From an uncultured bacterium (GTDB lineage: Bacteria > Verrucomicrobiota > Verrucomicrobiia > Verrucomicrobiales > DEV007), in contig CAXBMO010000006.1 of assembly GCA_963977015.1 (NCBI GenBank), positions 256,001-320,000 on the forward strand: 64,000 bases of DNA. Direction: 5' to 3'. Under the pieces are notes generated by a model that made no database searches, was not told the origin of the DNA, and saw only the letters and a program-made list of their open reading frames with translations. Made by a program: the position numbers and the translations under genes. Positions 18,407-49,219 of this stretch are shown in pieces (the stretch's first letter is position 1; each line of letters opens with the position of its first letter).

Positions 18407-18513
18407 CGGTTTCGCAGTGATCCGATTTCTACAAAGTTTAAACCATTCTCTCAAGAGGAAAGCGTTGCCAGCCCGGATTCCAGCTTCTTAGGTGGAGGCT
18501 CTGTTCAAACGTT

Positions 18514-19314
18514 ATGAAACCCCTCAAACTTGCCCTCTATCTAGGCCTGGGATGGCTGTTGCTGTGCCCTTCCTTCGCTGCTGAAGAAAACGCAACGCCG
18601 CAGGAAGCCGCCGAATCGGAACTGATCGAAGATCCGCTGGGCTCCGAACTGGTGGAGGTGAACTGGCTGGAAGAGATGATGGAAGGCGGGCTGACGATGG
18701 TGGCGCTGAGCATCCTGTCCGTGGCCCTGGTCGCTTTGCTGATCGAACGTTTCCTGACACTGAAGCCGGAAAAATTCGTTCCCTCGCCGTTGATCGAGAC
18801 GGTCCGGCCGCTGTTCGCGAAGAACGATTTTGCGGGGATCCGAAGCGCCTGCGACGAGCATCCCTCAACCGCGGCGGAGGTTATCCGGCATTGCGTGGAT
18901 TACCGGGAAACGGAGTTCGATCTGCTCCAGACGAGCGCGGCGGATATCGCGGCCCGCGCCGTGGTCGATCAGGAAGAGAAGTGCAATCCGCTCAGTGTCA
19001 TCGCGGGCGTGGCGCCCTTGCTGGGACTGCTCGGAACGATGATCGGGATGATCGAGTCCTTCAAGCTGGTGGAGGTTTTCGGGGATGAAGGAGGCGCATC
19101 GTTGCTGGCGGGATCGATTTCCAAGGCGCTCATCACCACGGCCGTCGGGCTGATTCTGGCGATTCCCGCCGTGCTGGGCTACCACTGGGCGCGACGCCGG
19201 GTTCATCACATCTCCAACGCGATGGAGGTGGAGACGGAATCGCTGCTCAAGCACTGGTTTCTCCTCAAGGCCGCCGATTCCGATTCTGATTCTGAAACCG
19301 CCGTTGCGTCGTGA
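18514..19314 (+). CDS. exbB: MotA/TolQ/ExbB proton channel protein
   Basis: APLLGLLGTMIGMIESF, ISKALITTAVGLILAIPA; signal peptide. Confidence 0.9.
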   Translation: MKPLKLALYLGLGWLLLCPSFAAEENATPQEAAESELIEDPLGSELVEVNWLEEMMEGGLTMVALSILSVALVALLIERFLTLKPEKFVPSPLIETVRPLFAKNDFAGIRSACDEHPSTAAEVIRHCVDYRETEFDLLQTSAADIAARAVVDQEEKCNPLSVIAGVAPLLGLLGTMIGMIESFKLVEVFGDEGGASLLAGSISKALITTAVGLILAIPAVLGYHWARRRVHHISNAMEVETESLLKHWFLLKAADSDSDSETAVAS

Positions 19315-19784
19315 ACCTTCGCTCCCGTCGCAAGAAGCCGCCGGAATCAGGAGTGTTGCTTTCGCCCCTGATCGATTGCGTGTTTCTGCTGCTGATCTTT
19401 TTCCTGGTTACCAGCATGATTAAGCGATTCGAGCGGCAGATCCCGGTGACCCTGGCGGATGACACGTCCGCCATCACCCTCGATCCCCACGACGACTCCT
19501 TTCCCATTGGCGTAACCACGGAAGGCCGGCTCTATGGCCCGAGCCGCAAGAATGAATACGGGGTGCGCATCTTTGAGCCCCTGGATGATCCGGAAGCCTT
19601 TCTCAAGCAATTGATCGTCGATCACGGGTCCCGTTCTCCGGTCACGGTGTTGGTGGAGCGCGGCACGTCGTTCCAGAAGGTGATTCGAGTCCAGGACCAA
19701 CTGGAACTGATCGGGTTCGAGAATATCCGTTTCCGAATTCGGGATCTTCCACTCAACAACACCCGATCCGGCATTCGAAGTTAG
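19311..19784 (+). CDS. exbD: ExbD/TolR family protein
   Basis: LSPLIDCVFLLLIFFLV with conserved Asp; GTGA overlap with exbB. Confidence 0.88.
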   Translation: MNLRSRRKKPPESGVLLSPLIDCVFLLLIFFLVTSMIKRFERQIPVTLADDTSAITLDPHDDSFPIGVTTEGRLYGPSRKNEYGVRIFEPLDDPEAFLKQLIVDHGSRSPVTVLVERGTSFQKVIRVQDQLELIGFENIRFRIRDLPLNNTRSGIRS

Positions 19785-19803: not shown

Positions 19804-20229
19804 ATGCGAATACGCCGCCGCAGCAATCAACCCGACGCCGAGGTCTCCATGGGGCCGCTGATCGACTGCGTCTTTCTTCTGCTGATCTTCTTCCTCGTCG
19901 CGACGATGTATAAGAAGGAGGATCGCGATATCGACATCGTTCCGCCGGAATCTTCCTCCGCCGTGAGAATGCCGCCGGACGACGACCAGGTGGTTCTCGG
20001 GATCGACCGGTTTGGCGAGGTTTTTTGGCAAGGGTCCGCGGTGTCGCGCACGGACCTGCATCGCCGCCTGCGGGATCTGGCGCAGACGGAACCGGACCGG
20101 CAGATTCGGCTCGATGCGGACTCTGAGACCCCTTTTGAACTCGTCGTCGAACTGCTGGACATCTGCCAGTTTCGCGGATTGGGCAACGTGGGAATCCGAA
20201 CCTATGATGATCGCTATAACCAACGCTGA
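19804..20229 (+). CDS. exbD: ExbD/TolR family protein
   Basis: MGPLIDCVFLLLIFFLV; IRLDADSETPFELVVELLD. Confidence 0.9.
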   Translation: MRIRRRSNQPDAEVSMGPLIDCVFLLLIFFLVATMYKKEDRDIDIVPPESSSAVRMPPDDDQVVLGIDRFGEVFWQGSAVSRTDLHRRLRDLAQTEPDRQIRLDADSETPFELVVELLDICQFRGLGNVGIRTYDDRYNQR

Positions 20230-20238
20230 CTACCGCGC

Positions 20239-22677
20239 ATGAAGAGGAGATTCGTTATCATATCCGTCGGGATCCACGTGCTCTTCCTCGTGATGGTGGG
20301 GCCGTATCTCTATACGCGCATGGAGTTCGACAAGGAAGAGGAGGCCAACCGAACCGAGGAAGTCCGCAAGCGTGAACTGGAGCGTCAGGAGTATGAAAAG
20401 GCGAAGCGTGAAGAACAGCAGCTCACGGAATTGCAGGCCAGGAAACTGAAGCGCGAGGCCACCCGGAAAAAGCAGGAGGAGCTGGAGAAGGAGCTACAGC
20501 GCCTGCGCGAGTTGCGCGAGGAGATCGCGGAAAAGCGGAAGGAGGCATTGCGCAAGATCGAGCAACGCACCGAGCGGGACGTGCTGGATCTCGAACACAT
20601 TGACTTCACGCGCCTGGCGCGAAAGCTGGAAGCGGAGGTGGAGTCCGTGACCGACCTGGCCGCTCGTCGTCATTTGGTGGCCGGGGCCTATGGTAGTGGA
20701 TCGAATGGAGTCATCGGGAAACTGGACGACCTACGACTCTATGGCCAATTACTGGACGACGCGGAGATGAATGCTCCGCCGTCGGAGGGACTGCTTCGTC
20801 GCTGGCGATTCGAGGGAGATTTGCGCGACGAGGTTTCCGGCAAGGAGATCGGGATACTGAGGTATGGCGGGAAGTTGGTCGAGGGCGGTGCTGAAGGAGA
20901 CCAGGCCTTTCATGGAAACGCCAAGAATGGGCGGGCCGTGTTGGGAGACCAGGGGTTTGGCGATCAGTTCACCATCGTCGTCTGGGTCCACACGACCGCG
21001 AATCTGAAAACCCAGGTGCTGGCTACCAACAGCCATGCCACCACCTACCAAAGCGGGTTTCGGCTCTTGATCGATGAATGTGAGTCAGAGGACGCTGAGT
21101 CGGGAACGCTGAAGCTGGTAACCAGTGGCCTCGGCAGCGGCAGCAGGACCAAGACGATTGCCAGCACCGAGAACGCGCTGCCCTTTGGCGAATGGGCCCT
21201 CGTCGCGATGCGTATCGATAAGGCGACGCTGAGTGCGGACCTCTTTGTCAACGGTGCGAAGGTTACCGCGGCGGGCGGCGAGGTCGCGAAAGACGTCTTC
21301 ACCGCGGTCACGCAGATCGACGTGTCCCTGGCGCAACAGGCTCGGGAGTTCCGGGAAGCGATCGAGGCTCAACCGATCACTCCGGCGCAGGTTCCCGAGT
21401 TCAAGAAGCAGTTGGAGAAGCTCGAGGAGGAAGTGGCGTCCAAGAGCGAGAACAATCCTTCCGACATCCAGAACGCAATCCAGGAGACGATCAACGTCGC
21501 CCAGGCCCTGGCGGAGGAATTGGACGGGCTGGAGGCCAAAACCGACCTCACGGCGATGAACGACACCAGCGCGGCGACGGCTGACTTCGATCCGCCCGCA
21601 TCGTCGGAAATCGCGACACCCGCGGAGATGTACGAGCAGGCGCAGGAACTCGAGAACCAGATTGCGGAAGCGAACGCGGATATCCAGGCCGCTCAGGACG
21701 CTGCCCAAAAGAACTTGTCTTACCAGGAAGCTCGCCAACCAATCACGCCGATGACGCCTCCCCGTCCGGACCTCGCCGAAGCGCTGAGTCGCAACCCGCT
21801 GAAAACCGTGGGCGAGCTGAACGAGCTGCGCAACTCGCTCCAGGAAGCGGAGAACGAGATGAAAGACATGACCGCCCGGGCGGAAGCAGCGCTGGGCAAA
21901 ACTCCGAACGAAGCGGGCGAGGAATCCAGCCCGCAAACCCGGCCCGCCGCTGCCTTTGCCTCCACCGCCGCCCGGGTCAACGCCGCCATCGCGAGCGGCA
22001 AGGCCGGATCCGTTGTAAACATGGTAGGGACGGCCGGAGGCGACGGAATTTCCGAAGGCATGCGGGCTGACGAGTCCGGCGAAGGGGCGGGCATGGAACT
22101 GGGCGCCACCAGCCCGGCGCCCCGGTTCGACCGTAGCGAGATTTTGAAGAAAGCGCTGCCCGGGCGCCGGTTTACAGCTGATAGCCTGCGGCGCGGCTGG
22201 CTCTATGTCGATACGTGGTATGTGATTGGTCCCTGGGAGAACCATTCCCGGATCGACTATACCAATACCCATCCGCCGGAATACGACATCGACTTCGACG
22301 CGCGTTACCGGGACGGCAAATTTGCCGATGAACCGGATCATCCCAGCCAGATCCTGAAGTGGGAATTCTATCAAAGCGACCAGGTGCGGAGTCAGCCACC
22401 CCGGGTTTATGGAGCCAGCACCTACTATGCCTACACGGACCTCTGGTTCGAGCATCCGCGCACCATGCTCATCGCCGTGGCATCCGACGACGCGGCGCGC
22501 ATGTGGCTGAACGGCGAGCTGGTCTGGCAGGATGAAGGATTGTCGCCCTGGACGCTGGGCGAAGGATACCGCCGGGTCTACTTTCGCCAGGGCTTTAATG
22601 ATCTCCTCGTGCGAATCGAGAACGGCCCCGCACATTGTGTGTGGAGCGTTTTGCTTTGCCCGGCGGAGGTGGAATGA
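20239..22677 (+). CDS. TonB/TolA-like anchored coiled-coil protein with LamG-like insert and PA14-like C-terminal domain
   Basis: N-terminal TM ISVGIHVLFL (S-x3-H), E/K/R-rich coiled coil, LamG-like motifs, WYVIGPW...YAYT...SDD...WLNG...N.LLVRIENG. Confidence 0.75.
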   Translation: MKRRFVIISVGIHVLFLVMVGPYLYTRMEFDKEEEANRTEEVRKRELERQEYEKAKREEQQLTELQARKLKREATRKKQEELEKELQRLRELREEIAEKRKEALRKIEQRTERDVLDLEHIDFTRLARKLEAEVESVTDLAARRHLVAGAYGSGSNGVIGKLDDLRLYGQLLDDAEMNAPPSEGLLRRWRFEGDLRDEVSGKEIGILRYGGKLVEGGAEGDQAFHGNAKNGRAVLGDQGFGDQFTIVVWVHTTANLKTQVLATNSHATTYQSGFRLLIDECESEDAESGTLKLVTSGLGSGSRTKTIASTENALPFGEWALVAMRIDKATLSADLFVNGAKVTAAGGEVAKDVFTAVTQIDVSLAQQAREFREAIEAQPITPAQVPEFKKQLEKLEEEVASKSENNPSDIQNAIQETINVAQALAEELDGLEAKTDLTAMNDTSAATADFDPPASSEIATPAEMYEQAQELENQIAEANADIQAAQDAAQKNLSYQEARQPITPMTPPRPDLAEALSRNPLKTVGELNELRNSLQEAENEMKDMTARAEAALGKTPNEAGEESSPQTRPAAAFASTAARVNAAIASGKAGSVVNMVGTAGGDGISEGMRADESGEGAGMELGATSPAPRFDRSEILKKALPGRRFTADSLRRGWLYVDTWYVIGPWENHSRIDYTNTHPPEYDIDFDARYRDGKFADEPDHPSQILKWEFYQSDQVRSQPPRVYGASTYYAYTDLWFEHPRTMLIAVASDDAARMWLNGELVWQDEGLSPWTLGEGYRRVYFRQGFNDLLVRIENGPAHCVWSVLLCPAEVE

Positions 22678-22762: not shown

Positions 22763-24469
22763 ATGCATCCTCTATTGACATTGCTATCTTCGGTGATTGT
22801 AACCCTGCTGATTCCCTCGCTTTTGAAGGCGGAGAATGACATCGGCGTGTTTGGAATCGGCAGTTGCCACATCAACAATCGCTCCGTTAAAGACAACGAA
22901 AGGTGGGTTCCGCAAATGGAGGCGATCGGCCTCAAATATTATCGCTCCGGTCAGACTGGCTGGTCGGCCGTGGAACCGGAGGAAGGAAGCTGGAAGTGGG
23001 ATACGCTGGATCGGCAGATGGAATATCTTGAGGGGAGGGGATTCACGTTTGGAGGCATTCTCATTGGCAACCCCGGGTGGAATAGCAAAGACCCTCGCGG
23101 CTCTTTACCGGTCAACCACATCGAAGGTTGGTCGGCTTATGTGTCGGCCATTGTCGGTCACACCAAGGGAAAGATTAAGTACTGGGAGGTTTGGAATGAG
23201 CCCCCGAATTTCACTGGCAAGGATCAAACGCCGGCGGACTATGCAAAGATCGTGGTGAGCGCCTACAACGCTGCCAAGAAGGCCAATCCCGATTGCCTGG
23301 TCGGTCTGGCCGCAAAATCTCTCCACATCAACTATCTGGAACAAGTCATCCAGGCCGGAGCGAAAGATCATTTCGATTTTATTACCCTTCATCCCTACGA
23401 GGTTCTGGATGGTGTGGCGGGCAGCCGTGGAACCGAACCGGTTTTTATGCATATTGAGCCCACCGTCCGGAAGATGTTGGCGGCTCAGAATCCTGAGAAA
23501 GTGGATGTGCCCATCGTCTTTACGGAGTTGGGATGCAGCGTGAAAAAGGGAGCCGATGTTCAAGCGCATACCTTGGTCAAAGCCTACACCATGAGTATCG
23601 CCCAGGGCATCGCCTGCGTGCATTGGTTTGAAGGAAGGGATGGTGATAGCGGGCCACTCGGCTTGCTCGACCGCAAAGGCAATCCGCGCCCCTCCTATCA
23701 CGCGCTGGGGCATCTGATTCAGTATCTCGGTCAGGAACCGGAGTATTTGGGATGGATTCAGGAAAACGAATCTCAGATTGGCTTTGTCTTTGCAGGAAGG
23801 GAAGAACCGGTGCTCGTCATCTGGGATAAATATCAAAAGACGAGGGAGTTCGATTTTGGGGCGCCGGTGCGGATCGTGAATCTGATCACGGGAACACCGT
23901 TGACGGGAGATCGCTACCCATTGACATCAGCACCGGTGCTGGTGACGGATTTGCCCGAGCATCTCGTGAATCAAGCTCGCGAGAATCGAGCCAATCTCAT
24001 TCCGTGGGGCGGGAATTTTGCGGATCAAAAGACTGTTTCCCTGACGATGGGAGATGAACCGGTCGCAAAAGGGCTTCATACCCGTTCCGGCGAGTCGGTT
24101 GCGGAAGCGGTCACCGGCTATGGTGGTTCGGCGCGTGCCGGGGGCGTGCCGGGTGGCAATCTGTTTATCGTTGATCCAGGATTCATGACCTACACCTCCG
24201 AACCCATCGAAATCAAAGCGGTGGTGCGAAGAAACAGCGCCAACGACAATGCCGGGTTCAAGTTGGTCTATGAATCGACGGATGGTTTCAAAACCGCCGG
24301 TCACTGGTACACGATCCCTGACAACAAGAAGTGGCATACGGTCACCTGGAGGATCGATGATCCCCAATTCGTTCGCTACTGGGGATACAACTTCGCGTTG
24401 GAGTCCGATGGCAGCAAATACAACAAATACTATATCCAAAGCGTGTCGGTGACGAAACTGGGGGAATAG
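22763..24469 (+). CDS. Clan GH-A glycoside hydrolase (GH39/GH5-like)
   Basis: WSAVEPEEG, WEVWNEP (acid/base), HPY, VFTELG (nucleophile); signal peptide. Confidence 0.8.
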   Translation: MHPLLTLLSSVIVTLLIPSLLKAENDIGVFGIGSCHINNRSVKDNERWVPQMEAIGLKYYRSGQTGWSAVEPEEGSWKWDTLDRQMEYLEGRGFTFGGILIGNPGWNSKDPRGSLPVNHIEGWSAYVSAIVGHTKGKIKYWEVWNEPPNFTGKDQTPADYAKIVVSAYNAAKKANPDCLVGLAAKSLHINYLEQVIQAGAKDHFDFITLHPYEVLDGVAGSRGTEPVFMHIEPTVRKMLAAQNPEKVDVPIVFTELGCSVKKGADVQAHTLVKAYTMSIAQGIACVHWFEGRDGDSGPLGLLDRKGNPRPSYHALGHLIQYLGQEPEYLGWIQENESQIGFVFAGREEPVLVIWDKYQKTREFDFGAPVRIVNLITGTPLTGDRYPLTSAPVLVTDLPEHLVNQARENRANLIPWGGNFADQKTVSLTMGDEPVAKGLHTRSGESVAEAVTGYGGSARAGGVPGGNLFIVDPGFMTYTSEPIEIKAVVRRNSANDNAGFKLVYESTDGFKTAGHWYTIPDNKKWHTVTWRIDDPQFVRYWGYNFALESDGSKYNKYYIQSVSVTKLGE

Positions 24470-37398: not shown

Positions 37399-39558
37399 AT
37401 GACACTTACCCCTTCACTCTTTGGTGCCCTCTTCCTTTCCGTTTTCCTGTTGGCCGTTCCGGCGCAAGCCGCTGATCCGCTGATCCCCAATCCGGACTTT
37501 GAGACCGATGCCGACGGAGATGGTTGGCCGGATCACTGGGCCGAGGTGAAGACCGGTGGAAGCTGGGAGAGGGAAGGGGAGAACCGCTTTTTGCGCCTGA
37601 GCAGCCCGGAGCCGGATTCGACGATCATGCTCTATCAGGAGGTTCGTCTTCCCGATGAGGTGAAGGCGATTGAAATGACTTGGAAACAGCGGGTTACGGG
37701 CCTGGAACGCGGCAAGAACTCGTGGTTCGACGCGCGCATCATGATGGAGTTTCTGGATGCGGACCGCAAGAAGGTGACTCCGTCGCCGCCGACTCCGAAT
37801 TCAGGGAAGGACACCGATGGTTGGGTCGAAAAACAGGTCACGTTTCTCGTTCCGGAGAACGCTCACACTCTCAAGTTCATGCCCAGCCTGTTGCAGGTCA
37901 AAGCGGGCACGTTTGATCTCGACGATCTGGTCCTGAAATCGGTCGACCCGCAACCACTGATCGAAGCTGCGGAGACGAAGAAGCGCGAGGCGCTCGCGAA
38001 AAAACATGCCAGCGGCGCGAAGCAGCTTGCGGAGCATGGCTCGTTGATTCCGGGTTGGGATCACGAAGGACGTTATGCGGGAAAGAAGCAGATCGCCGAG
38101 GAAGACGGGAACCACTATCTCAAGTTGGTGAGTTCGGAGCCGGGAAAGATGGTGACGGATTACCGGTTGGTGGATTTGCCCGCGGATGTGAAAGCCCTGG
38201 AGCTGAGCTGGAAGCAGCGGGTGACGGGGTTGAAGAAAGGCGAGAAGCCGTGGAACGACGCCCGCATCATGCTGGAGTGGAAAGATGTGTGGGGCAAAAA
38301 AGTCAGCGGCAGCCCGTCCCCGCCTTACACCCAGAAGGACACCGACGGTTGGGTGGAAAAGACCAAGAGTTTTCTCGTGCCGGAAGACGCCGCCACGCTG
38401 GTGTTCATGCCGACGCTCTTCAACGTGGCGGCAGGAACCTACGAGCTGGATGACTTCATGCTCAAGCCGGTCGATCCGGCGCCATTGCTTGCCGCCAAAT
38501 CGGAGCGGGATCGTCAGATCGAGGCGCGCCACGTTCCGGATGAGGAGCCTGACCAGAGCAAATGGCCGCAGATGCTGAAAGTTGCCGGAAACAAGGTGCT
38601 CGATGCCGATGGGAATGAGTTCTGGCTTCAAGGCGTCAACGCGGGCGGTTTGGAGACGCTGCCATTCGATCAACAAGTCGTGAAGTCCGTCGTTGTCGCG
38701 ATCGACGATTGGAACGCGAATTGCATCCGGCTGCCGGTGGTTGAATCGTTTTGGTGGGGCGAAAGCGCGTATCAGGAGGACAAGGGTGAAGGTTACCGGA
38801 AGCTCATCGACAAGATCGTGACCCTGGCCGCGAATCGCGGGGCCTATGTCGCGATCGATCTGCACCGTTATCGCGCCCCCAAGCCGATCCACGCCGATTT
38901 CTGGAAGGAATGCGCCGAAGTCTACAAGGATCACCCGGCCGTGTTGTTCGATATCTACAACGAGCCGCATGGCATCTCGTGGGAAGTCTGGCAAAAGGGC
39001 GGCTTTGTCGGGACGAAGAAGGATGCGGACGAAGCGGCGTTTCTCTCGGACGAGGAGAAGAAGAAAAACCAGGGCTTCGAATCGGTCGGCATGCAGGGGC
39101 TGGTCGATGCCGTGCGCTCGACCGGAGCGAAGAACATCATTATCGCGGGCGGCACGTTTTACTGCAACAACCTGAGCGGAATCGTGGAAGGCTACGCGCT
39201 CGATGACAAGGGCGGAAACGGCATCATGTATTCCTGGCACAACTACTGGTGGCACACGGGTTGGGAGAAGATTCTGCCAGTCGCCGAGAAGCATCCGATT
39301 TTCCTCGGTGAAGTGGGTGCGGACATCAAAAAGATGAGTTTTATCCCGGCTGAAAACCAGGAAGATCCCTACACCTGGGTGCCGGACATGCTCGGCTTTA
39401 TCCAGAAGTACCATCTCCACTGGACGGGTTGGTGTTTCCACACCAGCGCGAGCCCGCGAATGCTGCTGGACTGGGACTACACCCCCACGCCGTTCTGGGG
39501 CGCCTTTGCGAAGGAAGCGTTGAACGGTAAGCAGTTTGAACTGGAGAAAATGCGGTAA
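37399..39558 (+). CDS. GH5-type glycoside hydrolase with two tandem CBM-like domains
   Basis: [40 protein letters not shown]; duplicated WKQRVTGL..G...W.DARIM module. Confidence 0.88.
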
Positions 39559-39692
39559 TTCGCAGCTGTCCGTCCACGGTTTGACGTGGCGGGGTGAACC
39601 CTAACCGAAAAAGATTGAGCATCTTGGTCATGGGCGCTATCCAACAGGCTCCGTTGCGACCGAAATCATTCAGTCCACCGGTCCCAAATCCC

Positions 39693-41654
39693 ATGAGGCC
39701 AACCTCAAACCCCAAACTGCCGGCGTTTCTTGCGTTGGTTCCATTCGTTCTCGCGGTGTTGTGTCCATCCCTGTTTTCGGCTCAGGATGAGAAGCCGGAG
39801 CCGATTGATGGCTACCACGAGTTCAACTATGGAAAAGGAAAGGAGGGAGCGAAGAATTGGGTGCAGGCGATTCGAGTCACCGAGCCCGAGCTGCGTTCCA
39901 CGATTGAGGGAGAGGTGAAAGTCGTGTTTCAAGCGAAGTGGATGACGGAGGCGACGGCGTTTTGTTGGCAACAACCGGATGAATCCGGGGACGCGTCGAA
40001 TGCGTGGGGCCACGATGTCGAGATTACGCCCGGCGGGATCGAGCTTGATCCGGAAGGGAACGGTTCGTTCGTGTTTCCAGCGGATGAATTCCCGAATGGG
40101 CCGATCAATGTTCGCATCTTGGCGAGAAACGAGGAGGGGAAGAAGGACATCTTTGAGCTGCAGCTCTTTAACCAGGGAGGTGTCCGCTGGAATCAGGGCG
40201 CGCCCGAACGCACGCCGCCCGCTGCGAAGGGGATGGACCTGATTTTCGCCGACGACTTTGACGGCGATCTCTCGATTTCCAATGATGGACGTGGCGCGAC
40301 CTACATGGCGCACAAGCCCGGTGGCGGCGACTTCAGCGGATGGCAGTTTTCCAATGTGTTGGGCGAGGGGAAACCGTTCGATCAAACGGGAACCTGGCTG
40401 AAGATCGCCGCGCGCAAGGATGAGCAGTCGCCCAAGGGGCGTAGCGGGATCATCGCTTCCGTGGATCGGGACTTTAGCGGCGTGTGGGCGAAACCTCCCT
40501 GCTATCTGGAGTGCCGGTTCACCGCGCAATCCGCGATCGGCACCTGGCCCGCGTTTTGGACGCTGGCGTTTGGCGAGCGCGGGACCGATGAGCTGGATAT
40601 TGTGGAAGCCTACGGCGGCAAAGGCCCGGGCAATCCCAATCATCCCGGTTATTCCATCGTGAGCCATTTCTGGCGCCAATATGAAGCGGATGGAAGCAAA
40701 AAGAAGGGTTTCAGCACCAGGGCGGACATCATGAACTTGGGCGGAAAGTCCTACTGGTCGACCACGTTTCACACCTATGGCGTCTTCATTGGTCTCGAGG
40801 AAACGGTCTACTATTTTGACGACATCGAGGTTCTCCGTCATCCCACCAATGTCTCTTCGCTCAGTCCGCATTTCTTCCTGATCAATCTGGCGATTGGCGG
40901 AATCAGTGGGTGGCCGATTGATCTGGCGCGTTACGATGAAGGGTCGGACATGTGGGTCGACTACGTGAGAGTGTATGCGAAGGAGCGGGTGCCGGACGGC
41001 TTCCGTCCCGACCGCAGTCCCAAGCCGCATCTCACCTCGAAGGGCGTGGGGTTGAGCTTCGCGGTTAACGGGGATGGCAGCACGGAGCTGCAACCGGAGG
41101 ACGTTGTCGGCGCCGATGGGTTTTCGCAGCGTTTCTGGCAGAATCTCCCCGGTCCCAACGGCGCGGTCGCGGAACTCCACGACAGCGTGAACGATCCCGT
41201 TTCGGGCATGGCGGTCAAGTGGTGGGTTCCCGAAGGCGATCACGCCTGGCGCTCGAGCAAGGGCCGGGATTGGGGCTTCAAAGGCGCGAATCAAACGATG
41301 CAACTCGGCCACGTTTCGCTGGGCGGTAGCCTGGAAGTGACCGGAGTTCCCTATCCCAACTACGACGTGGTTGTCTACACCGGTGCCGGAGATAACTGGG
41401 GAGCTGGGTCGGTCACCATTTCCTCCCCGGACAAGACCGGCGTCGATCCGGACGCCACGCACTTTTACAAAATCGGCTGGTTGAAGGGCAAGTTCGTCCT
41501 GTCTGAGGCAACGTCGCTGGAATCCGCGGAGAACTCGAATGGAGTGGTCTTTCGCGGGAACACGGCGGACTCGTTTCGATTAGACTGGACCGGCGATCTC
41601 GCCAACGGACAGACGGGGGTGACGGGATTGCAAATCGTCGCCCGCCCCGAATAG
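39693..41654 (+). CDS. GH16-family glycoside hydrolase with extra domains
   Basis: IFADDFDG, GTWPAFW, ELDIVE, FHTYG, LINLAIGG, VDYVRVY. Confidence 0.85.
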   Translation: MRPTSNPKLPAFLALVPFVLAVLCPSLFSAQDEKPEPIDGYHEFNYGKGKEGAKNWVQAIRVTEPELRSTIEGEVKVVFQAKWMTEATAFCWQQPDESGDASNAWGHDVEITPGGIELDPEGNGSFVFPADEFPNGPINVRILARNEEGKKDIFELQLFNQGGVRWNQGAPERTPPAAKGMDLIFADDFDGDLSISNDGRGATYMAHKPGGGDFSGWQFSNVLGEGKPFDQTGTWLKIAARKDEQSPKGRSGIIASVDRDFSGVWAKPPCYLECRFTAQSAIGTWPAFWTLAFGERGTDELDIVEAYGGKGPGNPNHPGYSIVSHFWRQYEADGSKKKGFSTRADIMNLGGKSYWSTTFHTYGVFIGLEETVYYFDDIEVLRHPTNVSSLSPHFFLINLAIGGISGWPIDLARYDEGSDMWVDYVRVYAKERVPDGFRPDRSPKPHLTSKGVGLSFAVNGDGSTELQPEDVVGADGFSQRFWQNLPGPNGAVAELHDSVNDPVSGMAVKWWVPEGDHAWRSSKGRDWGFKGANQTMQLGHVSLGGSLEVTGVPYPNYDVVVYTGAGDNWGAGSVTISSPDKTGVDPDATHFYKIGWLKGKFVLSEATSLESAENSNGVVFRGNTADSFRLDWTGDLANGQTGVTGLQIVARPE

Positions 41655-41692: not shown

Positions 41693-42484
41693 ATGCACCA
41701 AATTCGTTTCCTGACGTTTCTCACCATTGCGGCGTTGCTGACCCCGATCCTCGGATTGGCTCAAGAAGACGCAACGCCTCCTCCTTCTTCCGCTGAATCG
41801 GTCACCAGTTCGCAAGAAGAAGTGACGACCGGGGGCGCGTTTTTGCTGAAGCTCAAACAAGGCGGCGGCACCATGATCATGTTGCTGCTTTGTTCGATTG
41901 TCAGTGTGGCTTGCACCGCAGAACGCGTCGCCCGGCAACGCAAGGAGCGCATCGCTCCGGACGGCGTTTCGGAACGGGTCGCGAAGCTGTGGGACGAGCA
42001 GAAATTTGCCGAGATCGAAGCATTGGGGGCGGAACAACCCAGCACGCTCACCCGGATGCTGGCTGCGGTCGCGCGCTTCCGCGAAAGTGGCGTGGAACGT
42101 GTCTCAACCATCACCGGAGACATTGCCTCGCGCGATTTGAAGCGGCATGTTCAAGCTGCGTTTCCGCTGGCGGTGGTGGCGACCCTGGCACCGTTGCTGG
42201 GACTGTTCGGAACCGTGCTCGGGATGATCGGCGCGTTCGACAAGATCGCGTTGATGGGGGAATTGGCCAATCCCTCCGCGTTTGGCGGCGACATCGGCAA
42301 AGCGCTCATCACGACCGGAGCGGGCCTCGCCGTGGCCATCGCGTCCTTGGCGCTCTATCACTTTTTCAAAAGCCGTGTCGGGATCTACAGCGTCGAACTT
42401 GAGGAACAGGTCAGCGAATTGATTTCGGATTGGTTCGACAAACCTGCGAATTCGAAGGCGAAGGGAGACCGCGATGCGAATTGA
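41693..42484 (+). CDS. exbB: MotA/TolQ/ExbB proton channel protein
   Basis: APLLGLFGTVLGMIGAF, IGKALITTGAGLAVAI. Confidence 0.9.
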   Translation: MHQIRFLTFLTIAALLTPILGLAQEDATPPPSSAESVTSSQEEVTTGGAFLLKLKQGGGTMIMLLLCSIVSVACTAERVARQRKERIAPDGVSERVAKLWDEQKFAEIEALGAEQPSTLTRMLAAVARFRESGVERVSTITGDIASRDLKRHVQAAFPLAVVATLAPLLGLFGTVLGMIGAFDKIALMGELANPSAFGGDIGKALITTGAGLAVAIASLALYHFFKSRVGIYSVELEEQVSELISDWFDKPANSKAKGDRDAN

Positions 42485-42881
42485 TCTGAACGACGACGAC
42501 GGCATTGAGGTGCAGATGGCGCCGTTGATCGATTGCGTGTTTTTGCTCCTGGTCTTTTTCCTCGTCGCAACCACGCTCAAGAAGATCGAGCAAGAGGTGC
42601 CGCTGGATCTGCCGGAAGCGGAACTGGCGGCGCGTGAAGTGCCGCAGAACGACATTCTCACGGTTTCGGTCGATGCGGAGGGGAAGTTGTATCTCGGGGC
42701 CGATCCGGTCACGAGCGGCATGGTGTTCGAGCGGTTCAAGGCGGCTGCGGCTGAGGATCCCGGGCAACCGGTTCGTCTCAACGCGGATCGCGCCGCGCCC
42801 TGGGCGTCGATTCTCGAGGTGCTGGAATTGGCGAAGTTTGAGGGACTGACGAACATCCGGCCCGGAACGAAAAATGAGTGA
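42474..42881 (+). CDS. exbD: ExbD/TolR family protein
   Basis: MAPLIDCVFLLLVFFLV; VRLNADRAAPW. Confidence 0.9.
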   Translation: MRIDLNDDDGIEVQMAPLIDCVFLLLVFFLVATTLKKIEQEVPLDLPEAELAAREVPQNDILTVSVDAEGKLYLGADPVTSGMVFERFKAAAAEDPGQPVRLNADRAAPWASILEVLELAKFEGLTNIRPGTKNE

Positions 42882-45018
42882 TTCGCCGCAGAACACGAAA
42901 GCCGGACGCCGGAATTGGTACGGATTGTCACTCCTGCTTCACGTCGTCGCCGTCCTGGCGTTGATCTTTCTCACGCCGATCCGGAAGGTGTTTCTGGAAG
43001 AATTCGAGTCCGGTGGCGGCTCGAAATCCAAACCGAGCATGAGTTCCAAAGAGCTAAGCCAACTGGCGGAGCGGCTTGAGGAAATTTCGGAGGAACACAT
43101 CGAGCGCAACGTGGAGGCAATGCAGGAGCTGCTGAAGCAGATGCAGGAACTCAACGATGCGGAGTTCGAGGAATTCGTCGTGTTCGAGCATTCACAGATC
43201 GAGCGGACTCCCGAGATCGTCGAGGACAATTTGAAGGAGGCGTTGGAGGCGATGCAGCAGGCCGAAGAGCTGCTCAAAAAGAACGATTACTCGACCGCGA
43301 TTACCCAACAGGCGTTGGCGGAATCGCATCAGAAGTCAATCCAGGACCGGCTCGAACTGGTGCAGGCATCCCAGGAAGTTCAGCAGGCGCAGGAGGAAGC
43401 GGCTGAGGTTCAAAAGCAGGCGATTGAAGCCGCCGCAGAGGCGAAGAAGGCGCGGTCCGAGATTGGGTCACTCGAATACCATTTGCGATATCCAACCAGC
43501 CAGATTCCGCTCTTGGAAGAGCGTGTTTCCAAGGCGCAGGAATCGGTCAAGAATGCGGAACAACGACACGAGGAGAGCCAGGCCAAGTTGAACGAGGTGC
43601 AGCAGGATCTCGCCAGCGTCAAAGCCGAGACGGATGATGCGAAGAAGATCAAGCGCGAGGAAACCCGGCTTGCCTACGCGACCAAAGCTGTCGAGCGAAC
43701 GGAAAAACAACTTGCCAGCAGTGAGGCCGCCTTGGAGAAATATATCGAACGGCTCACCGCCACCAAAACCAAGGTGACGGAATTGACCAAGGCGAAAGCC
43801 GAGCAGGAACAGGTTGCCAATTCTGCTCATCAAACCGCCACCGAAAAGCAGGCCAAGGCGATTGAGCTTCAATCCGGCGTCGTCGAAAAGATCCAAGAGG
43901 ACGTGGCGAAGCGGGTCGCCGAATTGCAATCCGAACTGGGCCCGGATGAAACCGTGCAGGCGGAGTTGGTCGAGGCAACCGCGGTACCCGATATCGCCGA
44001 AATGAGCGTGTTGGAATTGTACAACGCGGCGACGGCGGTGGAGCAGCAACTCGCCGAGAAGTTCCGCCAGGGGCGCGCGATGCAGTTGTCGATTTTGCAG
44101 GATGTTCCCTTCAACGCCGCGTTGGAAGCGGTCGATCTCGTCGTTCCCGTGCGTCCCGAGATTTCCGGCGACGTCATGACCTCGGACGCGCGAAATGCGG
44201 AACAATTGGAGGCCAAAAAGGAAGCCGTTCGCAAGGCGATGGCGGAAACCGGTTCCATGGTCGCGTTGGGACATTCCCTGCTCGGTCAAGCCATTCAGGC
44301 GCGTCAGGGCGACGGCGGAATCGGAGCCGGGAAGATCTCGTTGGCCGCAATTCAGGCACGATCGACGCAAATGCAACAACTCGAATCGCTCGCCAATCAG
44401 GAAACGAGCGGCAAAGCCGTCGATGTGTCCCAGGCGATGATGGCCGGACTGGATGGCGTCAACATTCCGGCTGCGGTACCGGTTGACGCGCCGGTCGTTG
44501 AAAAAACGATCCTGCCCAGCTTTGGCCGCAAAGTCGGGGCAAGCGGCGAAGGGGCGGAGTGGATGGCGGTGACGGATTGGTATCTTCTCGGACCGTTCGA
44601 CAACACCGGCCGCGCCAACATCGACCGCGTTTTTCCGCCGGAAAGCCTCGTCGACCTCAACGCCGTTTACCTTGGCAAAGGCGACCGGACGATCCGCTGG
44701 ACCTTCACCACCGCGATCGACAAGCTCGGCCAGTCGCGTCCTGCCAACTGGGAAAGTTACGGGATTTGGTATGCCTACACGGAACTGAAATTCGACAAAC
44801 CCTGCGATCTCTGGATTTCGATGGGCTCCGACGACAAAGGCCAGGTGTGGATCAACGACGTTCCCGTCTGGATTTCCGCCAGCCATCACAAAATCTGGCA
44901 TCCCGGCGAGGCGCAGCGCCGCGTCCATTTCGAGAAAGGGCGAAACCGCGTCCTTTTCCGCGTTGAGAACGGGCAGCACGGAATGGGGTTCTCGTTTTGG
45001 GTGAAGCTGGAGGAGTAG
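42874..45018 (+). CDS. TonB/TolA-like anchored coiled-coil protein with PA14-like C-terminal domain (paralog of 20239-22677)
   Basis: TM LSLLLHVVAV (S-x3-H), long A/E/Q/K coiled coil, WYLLGPF...YAYT...SDD...WIND...NRVLFRVENG. Confidence 0.75.
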   Translation: MSDSPQNTKAGRRNWYGLSLLLHVVAVLALIFLTPIRKVFLEEFESGGGSKSKPSMSSKELSQLAERLEEISEEHIERNVEAMQELLKQMQELNDAEFEEFVVFEHSQIERTPEIVEDNLKEALEAMQQAEELLKKNDYSTAITQQALAESHQKSIQDRLELVQASQEVQQAQEEAAEVQKQAIEAAAEAKKARSEIGSLEYHLRYPTSQIPLLEERVSKAQESVKNAEQRHEESQAKLNEVQQDLASVKAETDDAKKIKREETRLAYATKAVERTEKQLASSEAALEKYIERLTATKTKVTELTKAKAEQEQVANSAHQTATEKQAKAIELQSGVVEKIQEDVAKRVAELQSELGPDETVQAELVEATAVPDIAEMSVLELYNAATAVEQQLAEKFRQGRAMQLSILQDVPFNAALEAVDLVVPVRPEISGDVMTSDARNAEQLEAKKEAVRKAMAETGSMVALGHSLLGQAIQARQGDGGIGAGKISLAAIQARSTQMQQLESLANQETSGKAVDVSQAMMAGLDGVNIPAAVPVDAPVVEKTILPSFGRKVGASGEGAEWMAVTDWYLLGPFDNTGRANIDRVFPPESLVDLNAVYLGKGDRTIRWTFTTAIDKLGQSRPANWESYGIWYAYTELKFDKPCDLWISMGSDDKGQVWINDVPVWISASHHKIWHPGEAQRRVHFEKGRNRVLFRVENGQHGMGFSFWVKLEE

Positions 45019-45084: not shown

Positions 45085-45953
45085 ATGAAAACCCCATTCG
45101 TCTTGTCTTTCGTCCTGTTTTTGGTTGGCGCCATTCCGAGCGCGATGGCGCAGAACGCGCCGCGCGTGGAAAAGGACATCGAGTTCGCCAACGTCGATAA
45201 CCATAGTCTCAAGTTCGATCTCTATCTTCCGGCCGGTGTCGAAAATCCACCCTTGGTCATTTGGATTCACGGAGGTGGCTGGCGCGGAGGGAACAAGGCA
45301 AAGTGTGGGGTGAAATGGGTGACCGATCACGGATTCGCCCTGGCATCCATTTCCTATCGGTTGACCGACAAGGCGATCTTCCCAGCGCAGATTCACGACT
45401 GCAAGGGCGCGGTTCGCTGGCTCCGGGCGAATGCCGAAACGTATGGCTACAGTGTGGAGAAGATCGCGGTTGCGGGAAGCAGCGCCGGAGGCCATCTCGC
45501 GGCTTTGTTGGGGACGACGGGTGATGTGGAGATGTTGGAAGGAGACGTGGGCGGCAACCTGAACCAATCCTCCCGGGTCGATGCCATTGTGGACTACTAT
45601 GGCGCATCCGATTTCATTCAGCGGACGAAGTCTCAACCTCACAAGACGATCAAAGAAGGCTCGATCGTGAATTTGCTGCTCGGTGGTCCCGCGGATCAGC
45701 GGGTGGAATTGGCCCGGCTCGCATCATCGGCCTTTCACGTCACGCCCGACGATCCTCCATTGCTGATGATACACGGAGGGAAGGACAACAAGGTGTTCCG
45801 GCCCAATCGGAGCGCTTGCTTGCGGTTTACCAGGAGGCTGGTTTGCCGGTGGCGTTGCACGTTCTCGAGGAATCCGGCCATGGCGGAGATGAATTCTATG
45901 CAGGCGAGCCAAAGACCTGGGTGCTGGAGTTTTTGCGAACGCATTTGAAGTGA
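45085..45953 (+). pseudogene. Alpha/beta-hydrolase esterase, frameshifted near 45795
   Basis: IHGGGW, GSSAGGHL, IHGGKD; shifted frame continues VPAQSERL...ESGHGG...EFLRTHLK* to 45953. Confidence 0.82.
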
Positions 45954-46009
45954 GACTCTGAAGGAGTCGAGCGTCCTTGCCCTGTTCCCGTTCTGCCAAC
46001 CCCACAACC

Positions 46010-48094
46010 ATGTTCCCAAACTCAGGTTTTCCATTTTCCTCGCTTCGCCGCTTCCTGTTTCTTCACGTCTGCTTCATCGGGTTCCTCACACCATCGTATG
46101 CGGAATTGACCCGGTTTGAGATCGTCACGCGGGAGGATTTTGCGGAAGGACAGGAATTTGGGAAAACCGGACCCTACGAACGCATCGTGGGCCGGGCCTA
46201 CTATGAGATCGATCCGGAGGACGGGGCCAACGCGGCGGTGGTGGATCTCGATCTGGCCCCGCAGAACGAGCGCGGAAAAGTCGAGCTGAGCGCCGACCTG
46301 TTCATGCTCTCGCCGAAAGATCCCGGCAAGGGAAATGGCGCGCTGCTCTACGACGTGAACAATCGCGGAAACAAGCTGGCGCTGGGAACGTTCTGCCGGG
46401 CGGCAAGGACGAATGATCCGAAGACCGGGAAGCACGCCGGCGACGGATTCCTGTTTCGTGAGGGCTTTACGATGGTGTGGAGCGGTTGGGATGGAGAGCT
46501 TCTTCCCGGCGGGGATCGCCTGCGTTTGTTTCCACCACTGGCCAGCGAATCGGAGGAACCGGTCACGGGCTTGGTGCGCTGCGAGATCGTTCCCAACTCC
46601 GTCACCACACGAACGGTGATCAATTGGGCGAACCATGGTTCCTACCGGCCCACGCAAAAGGGACTTGAAACGGCGACCCTGACGGAGCGTCTCCTGCCGC
46701 AACATCCACGCGTGCCGATTTCGCGCGACCAATGGGAACTGATCGCCACCGAGACGCCGGGCGCGGAGCTGTCGCAACTGCCGAAGGTCGAGCTGGAGTT
46801 TCCTGCCGGACTGAAGAAGGCGCACATCTACGAGTTGATTTACGAGGCAAAGGATCCCGTGATCATGGGAACCGGGTTCCCTGCGGTGCGCGATCTGATT
46901 TCGGCCTTGCGGAACGGGACGGGCGCGGGCAATCCGGTCCCGCCAATCGAACGCACCTACGGTTTCGGCGTTTCCCAGAGTGGCCGTTTTCTCCGCGAAT
47001 TCGTTCATGGAGGCTTCAATGCTGATGAGGCGGGACGCAGGGTGTTCGACGGCATCATTCCTCATGTGTCGGGCGGAGGGATGGGCTGTTTCAACTTCCG
47101 ATTTGCCCAGCCCACTCGGCACGCCGGGCAACACGATCATCATGATTACCCTCCCGATCGCTTTCCGTTCGCCTACGAAACGCAGACCGATCCCTTGTCC
47201 GGACAAACCGACGGAATCCTGAAGCGGGCGACCGAAAGTGGTACCGCGCCGCTGGTGTTTCATACCCAGTCCAGCTCGGAATTCTGGAACCGGAGCGGCT
47301 CCCTTGTGTTCACGGATCCCCTCGGTGAACGCGATGCCGATGTGCCTGACAATGTCAGAATTTATTTCTTCGGCGGAACGCAGCATGGGCCGAGCAGTTT
47401 TCCACCGAGCAAGGGCGGCGGTCAGACGATGGGGAATCCAGCCGACTACAAACCCTTCCTTCGCGCCCTGTTGGTGGCCCTGGATCGGTGGAACGCGACG
47501 GGCGAGGAACCGCCGCCGAGTCAGTATCCAACAATCCGCGAAGGCGATCTGGTGGCCTGGACGCAGAACGCGACCGGCTTTCCCGCGATTCCCGGCATCA
47601 CCTATCCTCGCGTGATTCAGCAACCGTCGTTTCTCGATTTCGGTCCGCGTTGGTTGGACCAGCGGATTCAGGATCGACAACCGCCACTGCCTCGTGGCGA
47701 CTATCAGGTGCGGGTGCCGAGAAGTGATGCCGACGGAAACGACGTTGGTTGCCTTCGCTCTCCCGAGGTGGCGGTGCCGGTGGCCACCTACACAAGCTGG
47801 CGGCTTCGGAGCGAGGAAGCGGGGGCGGGGAATGAACTGCTGAGCCTAAGCGGATCCTACATTCCGTTTCCAAAAACGAAGGACGAACGCGAGCAGAGTG
47901 GCGACCCCCGTTTGTCGGTCGAGGAACGATATGAATCGCTCGAAGGCTACCTGGCGAAACTGGAAGCGCAATGTCGCGAATACGAGAGAGCGGGGTTCCT
48001 CCTTGGCGAGGATGTGCCGCAGATCGTGGAGACGCAGCGGAAGCGGGTGGCGACGTTGTTCGAGCCCATGGAAGTGGAGGCGGCGGGAAATTAG
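46010..48094 (+). CDS. Secreted alpha/beta hydrolase domain protein
   Basis: GPYERIVG, DVNNRG, WSGWDG, FGVSQSGRFLR, GTQH, DGNDVG. Confidence 0.8.
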   Translation: MFPNSGFPFSSLRRFLFLHVCFIGFLTPSYAELTRFEIVTREDFAEGQEFGKTGPYERIVGRAYYEIDPEDGANAAVVDLDLAPQNERGKVELSADLFMLSPKDPGKGNGALLYDVNNRGNKLALGTFCRAARTNDPKTGKHAGDGFLFREGFTMVWSGWDGELLPGGDRLRLFPPLASESEEPVTGLVRCEIVPNSVTTRTVINWANHGSYRPTQKGLETATLTERLLPQHPRVPISRDQWELIATETPGAELSQLPKVELEFPAGLKKAHIYELIYEAKDPVIMGTGFPAVRDLISALRNGTGAGNPVPPIERTYGFGVSQSGRFLREFVHGGFNADEAGRRVFDGIIPHVSGGGMGCFNFRFAQPTRHAGQHDHHDYPPDRFPFAYETQTDPLSGQTDGILKRATESGTAPLVFHTQSSSEFWNRSGSLVFTDPLGERDADVPDNVRIYFFGGTQHGPSSFPPSKGGGQTMGNPADYKPFLRALLVALDRWNATGEEPPPSQYPTIREGDLVAWTQNATGFPAIPGITYPRVIQQPSFLDFGPRWLDQRIQDRQPPLPRGDYQVRVPRSDADGNDVGCLRSPEVAVPVATYTSWRLRSEEAGAGNELLSLSGSYIPFPKTKDEREQSGDPRLSVEERYESLEGYLAKLEAQCREYERAGFLLGEDVPQIVETQRKRVATLFEPMEVEAAGN

Positions 48095-48145: not shown

Positions 48146-49219
48146 ATGAAGAATCTCATCAAGAAATTTGTGATCCCGTTCAGTGGAGTGGCCCTGCTGG
48201 TCGCGTCCCCGGTATCTGCGGAACTGTATGACTTGCAACTCAACGCTGAAGTCATCGTTCCGTCGCCGGAGGAAACACGAATCCAGCATTTGTCCTGGCC
48301 GAAGATCACCCGCACGAAGAGTGGAGTCTTGGTTCTCGCCTACAGCGCGGGAATCGGCCACAACCAGGGAGGGTCAGGGTTGGCGGTATCCATTTCAAAG
48401 GACGAGGGCCAAAGTTTCTCGCCCCCGAAGGTCCTGACCTATTTCCCGGATGATGATGATCGTTATGACGATATGGGGAACCTGGCCATGGGCACCAGTG
48501 AAGATGGCAAGTCCGTTCTGATCCTGGCGATGGGATTCAACAAGGAGAGAGGCAATACCGTCCTCGGATGGCGGTCGTCCGACGATGGAGAAACCTGGGA
48601 TCGAATCGATACGAACAACCTCGCCGAAAACAAAACCGGTTCGGTGTTTGGGCATGTCTTTCCGGTGCCCGGCAAGGGACTGGCGGTGTGTGGCCATTAT
48701 CGCAACCCCAAAGGGAATGGAATCTGGATCGCCTATTCAGAAGATGAGGGAGCCTCGTGGGGATCGCCTCATACCATCAGCGAGGAACGGTTTTTCGAGC
48801 CCGTGTTCATCTTTTCGCAGGATCGACTGATCGGACTGGTGCGTGAGAACGATGCCCATGCCTATCATCAGTTTGTCAGCGATGATCTTGGAGAGTCCTG
48901 GGAGTTCACCAGAACCGCAATTCAAGGTAACGCGAAAGCGGTCCATCCCAGCCCGTTTTTGGTTTCAGATCCCCGGAATCCTGATGTCCTCTACGCGTTG
49001 ATTTCAGAACGGGAACCGTCGCACCAAATTACGCTGTGGAAATCCAAGCCAAATCCGCTGGAGTGGAAACCCGTCTGCAAGGTCACCGAAGGCGGTGGCG
49101 ACTGGACCTATCCCTGGATGACCCATTTGGGTGGCAATGAGTGGTATCTTGTCTATTACCAGGGCGACAAGAAAGCTTCATCGATCTACGGAAGACGAGT
49201 GAGCATCCCGGAGAATTAA
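48146..49219 (+). CDS. Sialidase-like BNR repeat protein
   Basis: SKDEGQSF, SDDGETW, SEDEGASW, SDDLGESW, WTYP; signal peptide. Confidence 0.8.
   Translation: MKNLIKKFVIPFSGVALLVASPVSAELYDLQLNAEVIVPSPEETRIQHLSWPKITRTKSGVLVLAYSAGIGHNQGGSGLAVSISKDEGQSFSPPKVLTYFPDDDDRYDDMGNLAMGTSEDGKSVLILAMGFNKERGNTVLGWRSSDDGETWDRIDTNNLAENKTGSVFGHVFPVPGKGLAVCGHYRNPKGNGIWIAYSEDEGASWGSPHTISEERFFEPVFIFSQDRLIGLVRENDAHAYHQFVSDDLGESWEFTRTAIQGNAKAVHPSPFLVSDPRNPDVLYALISEREPSHQITLWKSKPNPLEWKPVCKVTEGGGDWTYPWMTHLGGNEWYLVYYQGDKKASSIYGRRVSIPEN

Follow-up and report, generated by a model that had tools for sequence, protein, structure and literature searches.

What does a motor of the ExbB-ExbD type do among genes for secreted glycoside hydrolases (GH) when the third protein encoded with it is neither a recognisable TonB nor a recognisable TolA? 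Motors of the ExbB-ExbD and TolQ-TolR types drive nutrient import through TonB and the stabilisation of the outer membrane through TolA. The locus that raises this question lies in a 64,000 nt stretch of DNA from an uncultured bacterium of the Verrucomicrobiales (contig CAXBMO010000006.1, positions 256,001 to 320,000; the whole stretch is called the window). There, an exbB and an exbD gene are followed by a gene for a 714 aa protein, which we call X. A related unit with two exbD genes and an 812 aa protein, X', is located further upstream; we refer to it as copy 1 and to the unit of X as copy 2 (Table 1). A preliminary description of the locus had taken copy 2 for a second, diverged copy of a conserved, substrate-specific module linked to carbohydrate-active enzymes (CAZymes). 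We conclude that X is a further variant on the known TonB/TolA plan, close to the transducers with a vWA head, and that the module is probably a proton-driven ExbB-ExbD motor with a dedicated TonB/TolA-like transducer, which would apply force through a lectin-like head.

The identity of the motor genes of copy 2 was clear. ExbB scored 79.2 bits against a gathering cut-off of 22.9 for PF01618, and ExbD scored 85.4 bits for PF02472, where the cut-off is 25.4. The reading frames of exbB and exbD overlap by 11 nt and those of exbD and X by 8 nt; together with the open reading frames (ORFs) and the Pfam matches, this confirmed the three-gene unit with overlapping stops and starts as it had first been described. 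Related loci from the X line were collected by a pattern-plus-tblastn scan with one genome per species, and the best 80 of 134 relatives were kept. Local profiles for scoring these loci were built from the ExbB, ExbD and head sequences of the window. The signature of the second and third transmembrane segments of ExbB (TM2/TM3; P167 L168 L169 G170 L171 G173 G177, together with T208) was invariant in 32 ExbB proteins of the module. All 74 ExbD-like ORFs from the loci and the window had the membrane Asp, 62 of them by pattern and 12, which read SM(M/I)DCIFL, by eye.

The 80 loci represent Planctomycetota, Verrucomicrobiota, Kiritimatiellota and Lentisphaerota; in addition, Sumerlaeota and Abditibacteriaceae each appeared as the label of a single record. 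Synteny was strict: where 2600 nt or more of sequence preceded the head-bearing ORF (56 loci), exbB and exbD were without exception located directly upstream and on the same strand. The other 24 loci, in which less sequence was available, contained both genes in 12 cases, only exbD in 3 and neither gene in 9. Up to four genes to either side were compared, and no fourth gene was conserved; the largest cluster of neighbouring proteins comprised 6 of the 80 loci at mixed positions.

X itself did not match any Pfam family at E ≤ 0.01, and its domains were delimited as listed in Table 1. The LSLLLH anchor, which had already been noticed from the letters, was found at residues 18-23 within the single membrane helix. 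According to the main text of PMC12204202, a Ser/His/Leu/Ser motif in this helix (SHLS) binds TolA and TonB to their motors; X has Thr in place of the final Ser. We evaluated the anchors of 84 head-bearing ORFs (82 from the 80 loci and the 2 of the window). Nine without upstream exbD, at contig ends, were set aside, which left 75. The full S-x3-H-x6-L-x3-(S/T) pattern was present in 40 of these, S-x3-H alone within the first 110 residues in 26 (with a clear chance match at locus L072), and neither in 9, mostly owing to problems with the ORF start or the frame.

The spacer following the anchor contained 1.5% Pro and about 50% E+A+Q+K. It drew only coiled-coil noise matches (SMC, PspA of NCBIfam, JetC), and by its composition it is probably helical or coiled-coil. 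In an alignment of 19 proteins of the family, residues Y383, E390, A402 and A416 of the neck were invariant and R427 was nearly so. AlphaFold2 (AF2) predicted helices for the neck with a predicted local distance difference test (pLDDT) of mostly 83-93, and the pLDDT fell to 60-64 in the first ~20 residues of the linker. When the neck alone was used in a homologue search, only 2 of 270 candidates proved to be close relatives. In the Atlas the neck found generic helical matches only and none to a feature, and the Foldseek search with the model of neck plus head gave only beta-sandwich matches and no analogue of the neck.

The AF2 model of the head, calculated from an alignment of 44 rows, was almost all beta, with a pLDDT of 93.0 and a predicted template modelling score (pTM) of 0.90. 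The values for neck plus head were 87.2 and 0.70. A Foldseek search of the PDB with the head gave 14 matches at E ≤ 1e-3 (E 2e-4 to 1e-3, probability ~1.0, with a TM score by query of only 0.40-0.49). The adhesin Cea1A was at the top, followed by GH3, GH31 and GH2 enzymes and a CBM6 (carbohydrate-binding module). The search with neck plus head added a PA14 carbohydrate-binding domain of Marinomonas, and named PA14 domains (6x8d and others) were matched with E 1e-3. The predicted fold of the head thus resembles the sugar-binding beta-sandwiches of the PA14, GH2-N and CBM6 types, whereas the sequence similarity to them was at noise level. BetaGal_gal-bd was matched by 4 of 45 heads at E ≤ 10, and in a search of PDB sequences the head profile matched nothing but repeat proteins (designed 'Bagel' propellers), which we regard as spurious. 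The head is a new sequence family, by this model probably of the lectin-type fold class, and it may bind sugar. The invariant 'GSDD' of the head may resemble the Asp-Asp calcium/sugar motif of PA14 lectins.

Twenty columns of the head were invariant across the 45 sequences. With a profile of these heads, 6485 representatives of clusters at 50% identity were retrieved at E ≤ 1e-3; the number fell to 2143 at 1e-10 and to 617 at 1e-30. The head family is therefore widespread, without having a Pfam family. Nearly all of the best 150 matches ended within ~15 residues of the C-terminus, and the source names that were seen for proteins of the family all read 'hypothetical protein'. One protein of 3178 aa (P0050) has seven copies of the head domain that alternate with CarboxypepD_reg-type repeats, and the domain thus also occurs outside the motor context. 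An Atlas cluster of 453 aa proteins with 276 members, mostly from Pseudomonadota, matched the head model with a TM score of 0.83 over 172 residues. It is auto-named 'cell envelope integrity protein TolA', so TolA-like proteins beyond the Planctomycetes-Verrucomicrobia-Chlamydiae (PVC) group may carry the head as well.

X was split into two genes in at least 19 loci, where the head-bearing ORF started 740-1700 nt after exbD. In 15 of these the gap was occupied by an ORF of 204-439 aa that begins with an S-x3-H helix. Of the 19 split head proteins, 17 had a signal-peptide-like N-terminus, and 13 of these 17 carried the neck motif (..YD.AV..LE..C.DYRRIRA..) within the first 70 residues. The point of gene fission was located immediately before the neck, that is, before the internal motif shared by X and X'. 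Nearly all split loci fell into one clade of 22 rows with a support of 98. This natural gene fission implied that the anchor and the unit of neck and head are tied together functionally, and it suggests that the neck may dock the head unit onto the anchor. At two loci from Kiritimatiellia or rumen (L030, 2765-9425; L031, 3904-10567), exbB, exbD and an anchor gene (360 aa) are followed by two tandem head-bearing genes (589 and 857 aa), the second of which again begins anchor-like.

BLASTP aligned X and X' with E 3e-28 and 26% identity over 462 columns. The similarity was not confined to the coiled coil. The C-terminal heads alone gave E 6e-26 (34% identity, 167 columns), and the region of the neck motif alone (ELYNAA..VEQQLAE and EMYEQA..LENQIAE, then P.RP), with four residues invariant in the alignment of 19 proteins, gave E 9e-6 over 92 columns. 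The common C-terminal domain and the shared internal motif that had been proposed for the two proteins were therefore both real. The motor proteins were paralogous as well, with 34% identity for ExbB (E 1e-37) and 38% for ExbD (E 5e-30). A tree of 114 heads (LG+G4, short search, unrooted, with 30 of 119 relatives of X' sampled by taking every fourth id) was divided into a group of 31 rows around X' and one of 83 rows that comprised X and the 80 loci; the branch between the two had a Shimodaira-Hasegawa-like approximate likelihood ratio test (SH-aLRT) support of 100. This branch strongly supported that the two copies are old paralogues and did not arise by recent duplication; with this, and with the conservation of the unit, the view of copy 2 as a second, diverged copy of a conserved module held. 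The nearest neighbours of X in the tree were labelled both Verrucomicrobiota and Planctomycetota, and the nearest relatives of X and X' were records of Opitutia, Verrucomicrobiales and Akkermansiaceae type, and also of Phycisphaerae and Aeoliella. Several paralogues were present in some genomes: two in the genome studied here, and two each in the bins behind loci L004/L033 and L026/L038. Judged from these sequences, the module appears to be of ancient origin in the Planctomycetota-Verrucomicrobiota-Lentisphaerota-Kiritimatiellota group and to comprise two old paralogous lines at the least; both are represented in the window. Relatives occur in the cultured strains Aeoliella mucimassa, Luteolibacter marinus and Haloferula, which makes the function of the module open to direct testing.

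In X' the spacer is interrupted at residues 233-348 by a Laminin_G_3 insert, a lectin domain of the ConA-like type. This insert was found to be swappable within the X' line. Laminin_G_3 was present in most members of ~810 aa and absent from the forms of ~645 aa, and a relative of 800 aa (P0286) had a canonical PA14 domain at the same position (E 8e-15). Some members of the line reach ~1100 aa. The database copy of X' (P0190, 794 aa) begins at Met19 and has thereby lost the membrane helix. S-x3-H was found within the first 80 residues of 64 of 120 relatives of X', and at residues 8-12 in the full-length ones, which supported the start of the 812 aa protein at 20239, 10 nt past the exbD stop.

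How does X compare with known transducers? It shares with the TonB-ExbB-ExbD system the families of ExbB and ExbD, the gene order, the N-terminal helix with its Ser/His motif, and the succession of anchor, spacer and head. It differs from TonB by a head of ~170 residues that is predicted to be a beta-sandwich and has no TonB_C signature, by a proline-poor spacer of ~330 residues, by the additional conserved neck, by the lack of a TonB-dependent transporter nearby, and by its ability to split into two genes. Closer relatives in design are the periplasmic force transducers with a vWA head proposed by Williams-Jones et al. 2025 (PMC12204202). As the main text of that paper presents them, these also combine an SHLS helix with a non-TonB head, are encoded beside tolQ/tolR-like genes, occur in the PVC group among others, and can be accompanied by a pair of different tolR/exbD genes, as in copy 1. 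In contrast, the head of X is predicted to be PA14/galactose-binding-like and all-beta, and it has no vWA match in Pfam. Their linker has ~100 residues and is proline-rich or disordered, whereas the spacer of X is long and proline-poor. No gene for a tetratricopeptide repeat (TPR) protein is conserved upstream of the module studied here. None of the terms PA14, jelly, sandwich, lectin and coiled appears in the main text of PMC12204202, and full-text searches of the literature gave no description of the family of X. With its SHLS anchor, its long and probably helical spacer and its lectin-like head, the family would add a further kind of transducer beside TonB, TolA and the vWA-headed proteins.

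According to the explanation that we prefer, ExbB-ExbD would be a motor of the MotA/TolQ/ExbB type that is driven by the proton motive force in the inner membrane, and the membrane helix of X would dock on it via the S-x3-H-x6-L-x3-(S/T) motif. The long, probably helical spacer, similar to domain II of TolA, would reach across the periplasm, followed by the neck, the flexible linker and the head. The motor would pull on X or turn it, and the head would then apply this force to what it holds, at the outer membrane or close to it; a glycan or a glycosylated component of the envelope is the most likely target.

Several observations weigh against this explanation. The final position of the motor-binding motif was T or S in only 40 of the 75 anchors, the anchor of copy 1 retains only the S and the H, and some distant relatives of X' (P0264, P0272) have Gln in place of the motor-binding His (S-x3-Q). 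One locus (L062, 1-4009), among the nine in which neither motor gene was seen, has the anchor and the head genes, but its anchor gene comes straight after the gene that precedes exbB in locus L051, with no exbB-exbD between them. It looks like the one real exception to the synteny, and could be due to gene loss or misassembly. The matches to the fold of the head were weak (E about 1e-4 at the low TM scores given above), and PF07691, the PA14 family, was matched by only 3 of the 45 heads at E ≤ 10, with a best value of 0.0068. The possible sugar binding is thus read from the fold class, and beta-sandwiches also bind proteins. We also scanned the flanking genes, two called ORFs to either side of each locus (249 proteins from 78 loci, L064 and L071 having none; Pfam at E ≤ 1e-6 in one batch and 1e-8 in the others), and 56 of the 78 loci had no carbohydrate-type gene within two genes.

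The target of the head could be part of the cell's own envelope. The module would then be a housekeeping analogue of TolQ-TolR-TolA that holds or remodels the outer membrane or the wall, for example at division, and its head would grip peptidoglycan, lipopolysaccharide or an outer-membrane protein. We regard this as possible but doubtful. Gene order and domain plan match those of tolQ-tolR-tolA, and the proline-poor spacer recalls domain II of TolA, which is alpha-helical in gamma-proteobacteria (PMC12204202, main text). The best NCBIfam matches of the copy 2 motor were TolQ (4e-18) and TolR (5.7e-15), ahead of ExbB and ExbD, but the scores were far below the cut-offs (66 bits versus 221 and 56.1 versus 127.3). 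In most loci the three genes formed a stand-alone unit among housekeeping genes. The strong conservation of the head would also fit, and the Atlas cluster auto-named 'TolA' provides a lead in the same direction, no more than that. In contrast to Tol-Pal, the head of X is unrelated to domain III of TolA, several paralogues exist in some genomes, and one line carries lectin-type inserts. No tolB-pal-cpoB genes were adjacent in the 78 loci, and the 249 neighbour proteins did not give a Pfam match of TolB, Pal/OmpA or CpoB type.

A role in polysaccharide handling would be a sub-case of the motor-transducer explanation and does not contradict it. The head, and in copy 1 the insert, would bind a polysaccharide or oligosaccharide, and the motor would power its capture, threading or release in cooperation with secreted hydrolases. 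The genome studied here makes a glycan-related role plausible. Both copies are located in co-directional clusters, copy 2 with GH5, GH16-like, esterase and BNR genes and copy 1 with a GH-like gene, and a XylR/AraC-type regulator is divergent from copy 1. The GH5 protein has a signal peptide, and the GH16-like protein has a signal-peptide-like stretch after an internal Met. The order of neighbours given in the preliminary description (GH5 and GH16 before the module, two hydrolases and a sialidase-like gene after it) was correct, but the assignment to GH16 was weak and below the cut-offs. The fold classes of the inserts and, by prediction, of the head are of lectin type, and the swappable insert of the X' line provides a hint of a glycan role that is independent of the neighbours.

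Over the whole family, the link to CAZymes was not upheld. A clear neighbour of the GH, polysaccharide lyase (PL), carbohydrate esterase (CE), CBM or sulfatase type was present in 16 of the 78 loci (L001, L013, L015, L017, L019, L023, L026, L031, L033, L035, L036, L042, L055, L059, L074, L078), for example GH29 and GH28 at L033, GH44 and GH78 at L074, GH127 and GH172 at L078 and PL11 at L059. Six further loci were borderline (L012, L025, L045, L052, L058, L075). These are raw counts from CAZyme-rich genomes, and for 16-22 in 78 we neither claim nor exclude an enrichment. The other loci were flanked by unrelated and often housekeeping genes, such as those for leucyl-, arginyl-, threonyl- and class II aminoacyl-tRNA synthetases, DnaJ/GrpE, the ribosomal proteins S16, L31 and L13, trigger factor, Clp and CTP synthase. 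Nor was there linkage to GH genes among the loci closest to X (L001-L006); an esterase was present at L001, and the others had LeuRS, URO-D, photolyase, racemase or recombinase genes as neighbours. The tabulated neighbours thus did not support CAZyme linkage or substrate specificity as a property of the family, and of the substrate-specific module that had been suggested, conservation and recurrence remain. Furthermore, the neighbourhoods of the 80 loci, taken as up to four genes to either side, contained no conserved gene for an outer-membrane partner, and the 20 invariant columns of the head fit one common ligand better than many substrates. We consider polysaccharide handling as the function of the module rather unlikely. 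The BD-FAE esterase gene directly after the transducer gene recurred in one of the 78 loci (L035, 10582-11415).

A bolder version of the same idea, which we regard as speculative and quite improbable, is that the module is an energised glycan-import device of the Planctomycetota-Verrucomicrobiota group. At the outer membrane, polysaccharide chains would be seized by the lectin-like head, in one line together with the insert, and drawn into the wide periplasm. If so, it would replace TonB-dependent transport of the SusC/SusD type and account for the 'selfish' manner in which these phyla take up polysaccharides whole, and the paralogues would serve different classes of glycans. The mechanism of polysaccharide uptake in the phyla that carry the module is stated to be unknown in passages of PMC5520146 and PMC8857213, and a passage of the latter calls for a search for non-SusCD outer-membrane transporters in Verrucomicrobiota. 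Tichowtungia aerotolerans, which belongs to these phyla, has no discernible TolA or TonB according to the main text of PMC12204202. In a 2026 report on a verrucomicrobial alginate degrader, the part that deals with clusters of TolQ/ExbB and TolR/ExbD lists them simply as TonB-dependent transport (PMC13274419). The module may bear on the handling of polysaccharides in bacteria of the Planctomycetes/Verrucomicrobia type.

Motors of this kind can also serve other purposes, and the Agl-Glt gliding machine of Myxococcus is a precedent for a motor of surface motility. PA14-type domains are common in adhesins, the top Foldseek match Cea1A is described as a complex with N-acetylglucosamine, and the main text of PMC12204202 speculates on gliding for the vWA-headed transducers. 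A gene for a TIR-domain protein just upstream of the GH5 gene could point to an anti-phage motor of the Zorya type. However, X has no feature that suggests a crossing of the outer membrane, and conserved motility or defence genes were not found in the neighbourhoods. PADLOC gave no match for ExbB or ExbD and no ZorA or ZorB, and the matches of X and X' were of coiled-coil type only (E ≥ 0.002). We therefore regard a motor for motility, adhesion or phage defence as very unlikely. That X is a divergent TonB opening TonB-dependent outer-membrane transporters in an ordinary Ton system is hardly credible, despite the presence of ExbB-ExbD, the SHLS-type anchor and the exbB-exbD-tonB-like order, since neither X nor X' matched TonB_C at E ≤ 0.01, the predicted beta-sandwich head and the low proline content of the spacer do not fit, and no TonB_dep_Rec or Plug match was obtained for the 42 ORFs of the window that were scanned or for the 249 neighbour proteins.

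The nine genes of the copy 2 cluster have the same direction, with intergenic gaps of 28-66 nt, and may form a single operon. The G+C content of the window is 59%. The terminator-like sites (11 versus 16.5 expected) gave no sign of a transcript end, and a hairpin just 3' of the stop codon of X (45020-45038; z = -0.73) provided no evidence for one. Promoter-like sites numbered 2, with 3.8 expected. The coordinates of all features are compiled in Table 1.

Table 1. Features of the two module copies and of their neighbouring genes, with positions in the window.
Feature	Position	Strand	Remarks
Copy 2: exbB/tolQ-like proton-channel subunit	41693..42484	+	263 aa; PF01618 E 2.9e-22; signal-peptide-like N-terminal segment
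Copy 2: exbD/tolR-like subunit	42474..42881	+	135 aa; PF02472 E 4.3e-24; membrane-helix Asp (PLID motif)
Copy 2: X, TonB/TolA-like transducer with non-TonB head	42874..45018	+	714 aa
X: single membrane helix	42916..42978	+	residues 15-35; S19-x3-H23-x6-L30-x3-T34 (SHLS-type)
X: proline-poor, E/A/Q/K-rich spacer, coiled-coil-like (domain II)	42991..43983	+	residues 40-370; ~330 residues
X: conserved helical neck	43987..44319	+	residues 372-482; LY..A...E..I.E.Y...RA..LA..R ... P.RP
X: variable A/G/S/Q-rich linker	44320..44508	+	residues 483-545; length varies in alignment
X: C-terminal head, predicted beta-sandwich of PA14/galactose-binding-like fold	44509..45015	+	residues 546-714; ~170 residues
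GH5 enzyme	37399..39558	+	PF00150 E 7.6e-27; signal peptide; first gene of the co-directional cluster
GH16-like beta-glucanase	39594..41654	+	PF00722 E 4e-4 (below cut-off); NCBIfam EglC-type 2.9e-19 (far below cut-off)
BD-FAE esterase	45085..45948	+	Pfam
Abhydrolase_10	45977..48094	+	Pfam
BNR/sialidase-like	48146..49219	+	Pfam
Copy 1: exbB	18514..19314	+	PF01618
Copy 1: exbD, first of two different genes	19311..19784	+	PF02472
Copy 1: exbD, second of two different genes	19804..20229	+	PF02472
Copy 1: X', transducer	20239..22677	+	812 aa; membrane helix S9-x3-H13, helical spacer, neck, same head
XylR/AraC-type sugar-responsive regulator, divergent from copy 1	17267..18454	-	Peripla_BP_3 3.3e-30, HTH_18, PBP1_XylR
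TIM-barrel glycoside-hydrolase-like gene directly after X'	22763..24469	+	GH42/GH10/GH39 matches E 1e-5 to 2e-4 (weak)

The TIR-domain gene divergent from the GH5 cluster (35953-37215, minus strand) encodes a TIR_2 domain fused to a DUF4013 membrane region. It gave a ThsB-like match in PADLOC (1.4e-8) and is a possible defence or NADase gene. Downstream of copy 1, the plus-strand region 25005-31658 encodes a hybrid PAS histidine kinase with receiver and Hpt domains, followed by a protein of 989 aa without a Pfam or NCBIfam family and a protein of 262 aa without a match in Pfam, the one database against which it was scanned. Two multi-domain proteins of the PSCyt/PSD type are encoded next to DUF1552 genes, and DUF1549/DUF1553, DUF1501 and PSCyt1-WD40 proteins were also found (435-5557, 49272-51467 and 54351-62157). 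Gene sets of this kind are of planctomycete type and place the window in the PVC group. A gene for a 23S rRNA intervening-sequence protein is located at 53930-54358.

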